Source of the DNA: a virus | Reading direction: 5' to 3' (one strand) | Length of the DNA: 64,000 nucleotides | IMG/VR virus record: IMGVR_UViG_3300024294_000597 | Part shown: positions 51,421-51,682 of the stretch, piece after piece | Layout of the letters: each line of letters opens with the position of its first letter | Numbering within the stretch: position 1 is the stretch's first letter | Notes under the pieces: model-generated | Told to the model about the DNA's origin: nothing | Databases searched by the model: none | What the model saw: the letters and a program-made list of their open reading frames with translations, nothing else | Made by a program: the position numbers and the translations under genes

Positions 51421-51640
51421 ACCGCAACTGTAGTTTCAGTGGATTGCACTCGAAAGTGCAACCCTATATTCTGAATAGAAGACCTCTATGTTGCTGTTGC
51501 AATGCAAATCTCGGTTCGAACCTTTTGCACCTCACAAATAGAAGGGACTTCGCAATAATTCAATATAATCGCTTACTTGCGATATACTTTTGGGTTGCGA
51601 TAGTAAACTGTAAAACAGAGAACTACTTGTATTTCCCATA
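51421..51640 (-). ncRNA. Candidate structured ncRNA, about 200-220 nt
   Basis: Flanked by TAAATA motifs; nested complementary segments, a UUCG hairpin and G-U pairs that favour the minus strand. Confidence 0.6.
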
Positions 51641-51682
51641 CAAATATTTATTATTTTAGTCGATAATCGATTTAAAACAAGC

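Follow-up and report, generated by a model that had tools for sequence, protein, structure and literature searches.

The stretch of viral DNA analyzed here (64,000 nt, IMG/VR record IMGVR_UViG_3300024294_000597, hereafter the window) carries a large T4-related phage gene set, including a clamp loader, tail fibre, head decoration and ClpA/Lon-like protease, and also encodes a DNA ligase, an endolysin and six tRNAs. The nearest match of its clamp loader is found in PA5oct-like giant Pseudomonas phages (57.6% identity), and a complete 342.6-kb genome with terminal repeats carries a homologous locus. The ORF at 48522..51383 on the minus strand encodes a full-length PutA (953 aa) combining proline dehydrogenase and aldehyde dehydrogenase (Pfam Pro_dh, 1.7e-81; Aldedh, 2.6e-79), and is preceded by a short 5' UTR with a purine-rich ribosome-binding region (51384..51411, minus strand). 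The 450-nt gap 5' of putA holds two non-coding elements: a terminator-ended sRNA of ~100 nt with its own TAAATA box (51683..51783, minus strand), considered here as context, and, between this sRNA and putA, the folded element that is the subject of this analysis, present as one copy in the 342.6-kb genome. Proteins like the compact PutA of the window (947-961 aa) form a phage-only group of ~70 protein clusters (P0001-P0071; 61-100% identity) on contigs of up to 472 kb, and the next relatives outside this group, some of them labelled bacterial, are identical at ~41% or less. The genes 3' of putA (MazG-like, ATE_C-like, DUF6614) are syntenic. Among the INPHARED isolate phages, neither a DNA match nor a close PutA was found. 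The six tRNAs of the window form a cluster at 34372-35814 on the minus strand (Pro, Trp, Met, Arg, Glu, Leu).

Homologues of the element were collected through a PutA search, which yielded three viral contigs with the same gap, and through a 19-base pattern taken from the most conserved block, which retrieved 18 metagenome loci, mostly from Tara and other marine samples. The element is carried by the viral contigs and by 15 of the 18 pattern-found loci, giving 14 distinct variants in four lineages: W (the window, L001, L024, L022 and L028), B (L002, L033, L031, L026 and L030), C (L039 and L036) and D (L025 and L037). The variants found by DNA pattern, independently of putA, all lie directly 5' of a phage putA. 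In lineage D (L037, 1990-2204), ~170 extra bases, including another TAAATA box, separate the sRNA terminator from the element. Looser DNA patterns, applied to the viral collection and to 185,579 bacterial and archaeal genomes, returned only chance matches, none of which was accepted by nhmmer or by the covariance model, and hence no bacterial copy of the element was found. In Rfam searches of the whole window at gathering score and of 51300-51900 at E ≤ 10, the element matched no family, the sole matches near it being weak, terminator-driven SraC/SdsR hits on the neighbouring sRNA. The initial annotation of this region had reported no tmRNA signature and had proposed Rfam as a check; no 6S, tmRNA or known-riboswitch match was obtained even at E ≤ 10, and ARAGORN reports only the six tRNAs in the window. 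A tRNA-like domain with a tag frame, as in tmRNA (including the two-piece form), was therefore found by neither ARAGORN nor Rfam.

TAAATA boxes are located 5' of the upstream sRNA, of the folded element and of putA. The second of these, P_up (51645..51650, minus strand), is a T4-type late-promoter-like motif followed by an invariant TTTG(C/T)ATGGGAA, and the third, P_down (51412..51417, minus strand), is a proximal promoter-like motif for putA within ATAAATAC. The initial annotation had placed the element downstream of a TAAATA box and had assigned putA a box of its own; both P_up and the P_down sequence are invariant in the 14 variants. The minus strand, the main coding one, has 44 TAAATA sites, and 13 of them precede an ORF start by no more than 70 nt, versus 3.6 expected. 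By analogy with T4, we read these boxes as putative late promoters. The longer ATAAATA is rarer than expected in the whole window (20 sites versus 37 expected); 16 of the 20 sites fall on the minus strand, many of them just 5' of gene starts, and this strand bias and positioning fit use as a late-promoter box.

Folded singly, each of the 14 variants adopts the same predicted architecture, consisting of a 5' tail, a hairpin (P0) and a four-way junction closed by helix P1, whose three arms are P2 (a short hairpin), P3 (a long, irregular one) and P4 (with an outer and an inner stem). On the minus strand, the predicted 5' end and the invariant tail AUGGGAA occupy 51629..51639, the AUG being a relic of the start codon of a gene, X, described below. 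P0 (51602..51624) lies outside the junction. The 5' strand of P1, AUCGCAAC, followed by a near-invariant CCCA, lies at 51594..51601, and its 3' strand, GUUGCGGU, identified by fold and covariation, at 51421..51428; two P1 pairs are changed on both sides between lineage W (AUCGCA/UGCGAU) and the others (AUCACG/CGUGAU). P2 (51562..51588) is built from AUCGC/GCGAU, ACUCA/UGAGU, AGUCC/GGGCU, AGUCC/GGACU or AACUC/GAGUU, depending on the variant. P3 (51478..51551) has a near-invariant core and includes the sub-helix P3b and a small UCGA-capped hairpin, P3c; 25 of its pairs are 98-100% paired and five are changed on both sides. Within P4 (51435..51475), the outer stem, UUCAG/CUGAA, is replaced in other variants by CAGU/ACUG or CAGUU/AACUG, and the inner stem (51464-51441), closed by a UUCG loop, is paired in 117 of 117 cells with seven of its nine pairs changed on both sides, its sequence being unrelated between W and B, C or D; a G-C to A-U change within a lineage is seen in L033. 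P0, P2 and outer P4 likewise consist of lineage-specific sequence, in P0 unrelated from one lineage to another, and the hairpin is still formed in each. P2 and outer P4 are out of register in both MAFFT and model-based alignments, so that pair counts from these alignments understate pairing, and single-sequence folds were used instead for these stems.

The words from which the initial annotation had assembled its fold are all present on the minus strand: TAAATA at 51650-51645, GTAGTT at 51626-51621, AACTAC at 51435-51430, the hairpin at 51464-51441, GTTGCGGT at 51428-51421 and a second TAAATA at 51417-51412. Several of the proposed pairings are kept with compensatory changes in the 14 variants, namely GAAG..CC..TCTAT/ATAGAGG.CTTC (P3a), TGCAAA/TTTGCA (P3b) and the hairpin GGGTTGCACT-TTCG-AGTGCAATCC, which is inner P4. 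The pairing of ATCGCAAC with GTTGCGGT, proposed as a pseudoknot, is also conserved with compensatory changes, but as the ordinary closing helix P1 of the four-way junction. In the alignments, the outer closure GTAGTT/AACTAC and the nested pairings GCAACCC/GGGTTGC and TATATT-GAAT/ATTC-AATATA are confined to lineage W or to the window alone. In place of two mutually exclusive folds forming a switch, a single fold is conserved, the one that had been offered as the alternative, and the first-ranked fold is lineage-specific. It had also been suggested that the element is a 6S-like rod with a bubble, i.e. a decoy of the sigma-70 RNA polymerase holoenzyme. It does resemble 6S RNA in its length (~200 nt) and partly paired ends, and a late-promoter-like box precedes it; however, the conserved shape is a branched four-way junction, seen in the consensus and in all 14 single folds, rather than a rod with a central bubble, no 6S or related Rfam model matches at E ≤ 10, and the element derives from coding sequence. 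A decoy role is accordingly extremely improbable.

The 230-nt stretch folds better than its dinucleotide shuffles, a control named in the initial annotation, on the minus strand (z = -3.58; -4.61 for a homologue), and the nearly equal value for the plus strand (z = -3.40) means that folding energy alone cannot fix the strand. In the model-based alignment, 88% of cells pair and 16 pairs are changed on both sides. The covariation that the initial annotation had called for is thus seen among the 14 variants, with a score of 0.264 versus 0.133 in shuffles, reached by 0 of 500 of them and far above slid controls; most of the paired changes separate a few lineages and hence represent few independent events. 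Some 50 cells of this alignment are G-U, and since G-U pairs would be A-C mismatches on the other strand, the fold belongs to the putA-sense strand, in accordance with the minus-strand assignment made initially. No reading frame is open across all 14 variants, the ORF from the 5' AUG spanning 35, 17, 24 or 4-5 codons. The embedded 35-aa ORF, whose protein-level conservation the initial annotation had named as grounds for refutation, is not conserved (4-35 codons), yet that condition applies in an unexpected way, since the ORF's tail, ..RSPF(S/Y)L, is a relic of the real protein gene X. The RNA fold, rather than the dead X frame, is what conservation keeps. A DNA-level element, such as a single-strand hairpin for replication, recombination or packaging, could be entertained because both strands fold about equally by energy and single-stranded DNA tolerates G-T pairs. 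It is nonetheless very unlikely: the wobble pairs belong to the sense strand, which is transcribed, and follow a promoter box; 20 seawater RNA libraries contain the region; and neither repeats nor AT-rich unwinding features were seen. Taken together, positions 51421-51639 of the minus strand are best explained as a functional, structured RNA domain of ~220 nt matching no known RNA family.

The derivation of this domain can be followed in more distant phages (PutA ~63% identical), represented by giant-phage contigs with the same downstream genes as the window. In L062, L063 and L065 the upstream sRNA is followed directly by putA, without X. In L064, L066 and L067-L072, gene X, encoding 178-180 aa, lies between the upstream sRNA and putA and overlaps putA by ATGA. 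Intact copies (L064:1968-2504, L066:1962-2504, L070:801-1394, L071:801-1337 and L072:801-1340) share a conserved HDxxH..x11..E motif, the HDxxH..E pattern of which presumably resembles Coq4; sequence searches of Pfam, NCBIfam and PDB with X gave no match. Since the X products of L064 and L066 are 75% identical (92% similar) and X has 203 relatives, with bacterial ones included at 40-50% identity, X is a real gene. A covariance model built from the 14 variants matches inside X in L064 (68.6 bits, E = 1e-12), L070 (71.2 bits) and L071 (27.1 bits). P_up and the 5' AUG of the element align with the TAAATA promoter and ATG of intact X, the X codons ..RSPFSLPGAISLEAHDCVHAIVGRGLL.. align with the P3 core, and P_down aligns with TATAAATAC at codons LYKYY inside X, present in 7 of 7 intact X genes read. 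In the window's clade, a CCA proline codon of X has become a TGA stop, the HDCVH segment has frame shifts of +1 and then -1, TATAAATAC has become the proximal box of putA, and ~80 codons of the 3' part of X are deleted. The ..RSPF(S/Y)L tail of the 35-aa ORF is identified as an X relic through this correspondence. In every X copy read, TATAAATAC at the LYKYY codons is a candidate late promoter from which putA could be transcribed from within X. The clade's complete 342.6-kb genome yielded no intact X in a search run without a positive control. As judged from these alignments, the element is the surviving folded middle of an otherwise decayed gene X, the frame of which is dead in this clade: it is homologous to intact X at the same position, with the frame broken, as in a pseudogene.

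The fold is also detectable in living X genes. Under synonymous-codon shuffling of the homologous 186-nt segment, excess stability was found in L064 (2054-2237; z = -4.0), L070 (944-1127; z = -4.9) and L071 (883-1050; z = -2.8), and none was found in L072, L066, L067 and L069, which encode the same residues with other codons. Between L064 and L070, one compensatory pair in the closing helix costs amino-acid changes. These comparisons show that the fold predates the death of X and was kept and extended afterwards. In a tree of PutA N-terminal regions, the sister group of the window's clade has two sub-branches, each with fold-bearing X genes, and the X-less phages L062 and L063 nest among X-bearing ones, the deep forks of this tree being poorly resolved. 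The simplest reading is a four-step history, in which an ancestral X would already have carried the fold, one X lineage would have lost it, X would have been lost outright at least twice, and the window's clade would have lost the protein, kept the folded segment and elaborated it with a new P1, P2 and P0. An mRNA structure has, in this clade, outlived its gene.

That the remnant is a non-functional, decaying piece of X, conserved merely through recent shared ancestry or recombination, could be argued from its homology to a gene occupying the same place, from the stop codon, frameshifts and large deletion it has suffered relative to X, and from the outright loss of X in other phages. The identity values contradict this account. 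Four-fold degenerate sites of the adjacent putA, used as a neutral proxy, are 48-54% identical between lineages, versus 72-73% for the P3 core between W and the other lineages and 95-96% among B, C and D; the same core in B or C matches the coding L064 at 81-82% identity. For the flanks of the element, identity between lineages is only 26-57%, and they nonetheless retain their pairing. A conserved core (72-96% overall) beside diverged yet pairing flanks is not a pattern produced by neutral decay, stems of unrelated sequence stay fully paired, and the piece retained is the very segment already over-structured in intact X genes. Mere decay is hence a poor candidate, and a real, selected RNA fold derived from gene X is very probable. 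The invariance of P3 at the level of sequence points to a specific partner.

Full-length folds suggest a relationship with the putA start. In these predictions, P1 is extended into a long panhandle by pairing of the putA UTR and codons 2-6 with the 5' tail and the P0 region, and the duplex of the 5' arm with the UTR and first codons has a predicted energy of -19.5 to -24.4 kcal/mol. In lineages W and B, 5' arm and UTR are complementary beyond both shuffled and genomic controls (p ≤ 0.004); the complementarity is weaker in C and D. In four of the five variants tested, the match of the 12-nt tail to putA codons 3-6 places it among the top 0.5-2% of random 12-mers, and pairing of the 5' arm with the putA start region is weak in L028. 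In a cross-lineage duplex matrix, cognate pairs of 5' arm and UTR were no better than cross-lineage ones. Two pairing partners are available to the invariant 5' UGGG, namely putA codons 4-5 and the near-invariant CCCA that follows the P1 5' strand. The neighbouring sRNA is found 5' of putA in every phage locus read, including those without element or X; its three hairpins all covary, its single strand UAGUCCUCUUCGC is invariant, and its best predicted targets differ between phages. As a partner for P3 this sRNA was rejected, its invariant single strand performing no better than shuffled seeds (p = 0.58-0.85).

Metatranscriptome runs from 2018 bear on expression. In twenty seawater RNA libraries, filed under 20 study codes, 55-90% of the words sampled from the 1.6-kb stretch 50800-52400 are present, from which it follows that the phage is common, and probably active, in the sampled waters. 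Contigs of four runs were placed on the region; such contigs carry no information on transcript ends, strand or level, and may stem in part from DNA carry-over. Those from two runs join the 5' part of putA to the element, with stops at 51620 (a loose end) and 51629, near the start predicted from the P_up box (~51638), and another contig ends at 51396, close to where transcription from the proximal box is predicted to begin. Contig depth over the element is not above that over putA. These data hint, weakly, at co-transcription of the element with putA and at activity of both boxes. None of the RNA contigs listed covers ~51630-51727, the site of the upstream sRNA's terminator; this gap and the nearby contig stops are at most a weak hint of termination followed by a new start. 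After P1, no terminator (GC hairpin followed by a U-run) was found in the window or in the variant alignment, so that transcripts from the upstream box should read into putA.

The reading we prefer, with a probability of roughly 0.45, is that the element is a cis-acting recognition or regulatory domain of a long, late putA transcript. Transcription would start from the old X promoter (TAAATA, 51645-51650) and run on into putA, and it is from this expected read-through that action in cis on the long late transcript is inferred. A factor, be it a protein, a small molecule or an RNase, may read the conserved P3 core, and the 5' arm may pair with the ribosome-binding region and first codons of putA, so that long transcripts would be masked or processed, whereas putA expression from the proximal promoter (51412-51417) would be unhindered. 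On the predicted pairings, the coexistence of two such transcripts, the long one masked or processed and the short one unmasked, is plausible. Several observations temper this proposal. The invariant proximal box allows putA to be expressed without the leader, a poor fit to tight control in cis. Where X is intact, the fold is part of a coding region and lies some 270 nt 5' of putA, and masking the putA start cannot therefore have been its ancestral job. Phages with X but no fold, or with neither, keep putA, so that the element is dispensable for it. Finally, all instances come from one locus, and the link to putA may be one of descent only.

Some of the same observations lend themselves to the less probable idea of a free, stable ncRNA of ~220 nt, cut after P1, in an AU-rich single strand, or in the long flank stem, and acting in trans, for example by binding or titrating a protein late in infection. 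A promoter-like box precedes the element, and the gene after it retains another; P1 joins the ends of the core, a common trait of stable RNAs; a binding partner is suggested by the conservation of P3 at the sequence level; the fold also occurs in X mRNAs, far from the putA start; and the flanks are predicted to be able to form a long duplex of the kind cut by RNase III. Yet of the two hallmarks of a terminator-ended, trans-acting sRNA the element has the promoter-like box and lacks the intrinsic terminator, the neighbouring sRNA having a strong one, and nothing indicates a trans target for this single-copy element from one locus. The RNA-library contigs run into putA, at a depth over the element not above putA; weak as this is, contigs joining the element to putA favour a leader over a free transcript.

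A riboswitch controlling putA and sensing, e.g., proline, glutamate, P5C, FAD or NAD+ is a less likely reading still. In it, a ligand bound at the junction or at P3 would shift the 5' tail between CCCA and the putA start, toggling translation. The element does present what is expected of an aptamer, namely a conserved fold with covariation support, as well as a conserved core with variable, covarying outer stems in sense orientation 5' of a metabolic gene; its 5' UGGG has two alternative partners, CCCA and putA codons 4-5, and related marine myophages have been reported to carry riboswitches (PMC9004378). However, an invariant promoter box stands between the would-be aptamer and putA, so that the 5' UTR can be bypassed, and the same fold lies inside the coding region of intact-X phages. 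Conservation resides mostly in helical P3 and less in the junction, occlusion of the ribosome-binding site shows no clear co-variation, a terminator is lacking, and the element, known from one genomic context only, matches no Rfam riboswitch. The proximal box, the coding-region fold and the putA relatives lacking the fold argue against any simple riboswitch or leader.

A bolder reading, which we consider doubtful, holds that the fold in X outvalued the protein and survived as an independent sensor or regulator RNA gating an auxiliary metabolic gene. Were this true, the RNA could be an aptamer for a metabolite or cofactor of the proline pathway, or a docking site for a phage protein, in abundant marine giant phages. 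Whichever reading applies, the phages with fold and X, X only, fold only or neither amount to a natural experiment on the role of the fold.

Structured RNAs are not without precedent in such genomes. Weinberg et al. reportedly described, in 2010, orphan phage-borne motifs (manA, wcaG and PhotoRC-I/II) located 5' of auxiliary metabolic genes. Like these, the element is structured, covarying, found in marine phages and placed in sense orientation directly 5' of a host-derived metabolic gene; unlike them, it has no sequence or model match, is flanked by promoter boxes, descends from a decayed protein gene and occurs in a single phage group, at a single locus. With it, the small set of structured RNAs known from marine phages gains a well-supported member that Rfam lacks, and its neighbour, a complete PutA encoded by giant phages, is an unusual auxiliary gene. 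Our search of the published literature for putA, riboswitch and phage in combination found nothing specific. Glutamine (glnA-type) riboswitches are reported in marine myophages such as Melnitz (PMC9004378). The element shares with them a folded, sensor-like RNA, a phage of streamlined marine hosts and late or T4-like transcription, but is unmatched by the glutamine and related models of Rfam, is about three times larger and has a four-way junction. Its predicted long-range pairing around a start region, able to mask translation or direct cleavage, is also reminiscent of phage mRNA leaders and processing stems. Among these are the lambda N leader, the T7 RNase III sites and the T4 gene 32 operator, which are simple hairpins or pseudoknots with known partners, whereas the element is a 185-nt junction.

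A parallel to its origin lies outside phages, in Xist, a non-coding RNA born of the dead protein gene Lnx3. Here too, an RNA-level function has come to reside on once-coding sequence, with the ancestral locus and promoter; unlike in Xist, however, the fold was already present in the mRNA of the living gene and was kept after the frame died, and the setting is a bacteriophage. With the living gene, the living gene bearing the fold and the dead gene bearing the fold visible side by side in related phages, the locus offers a rare, readable case of a non-coding RNA arising from coding sequence.
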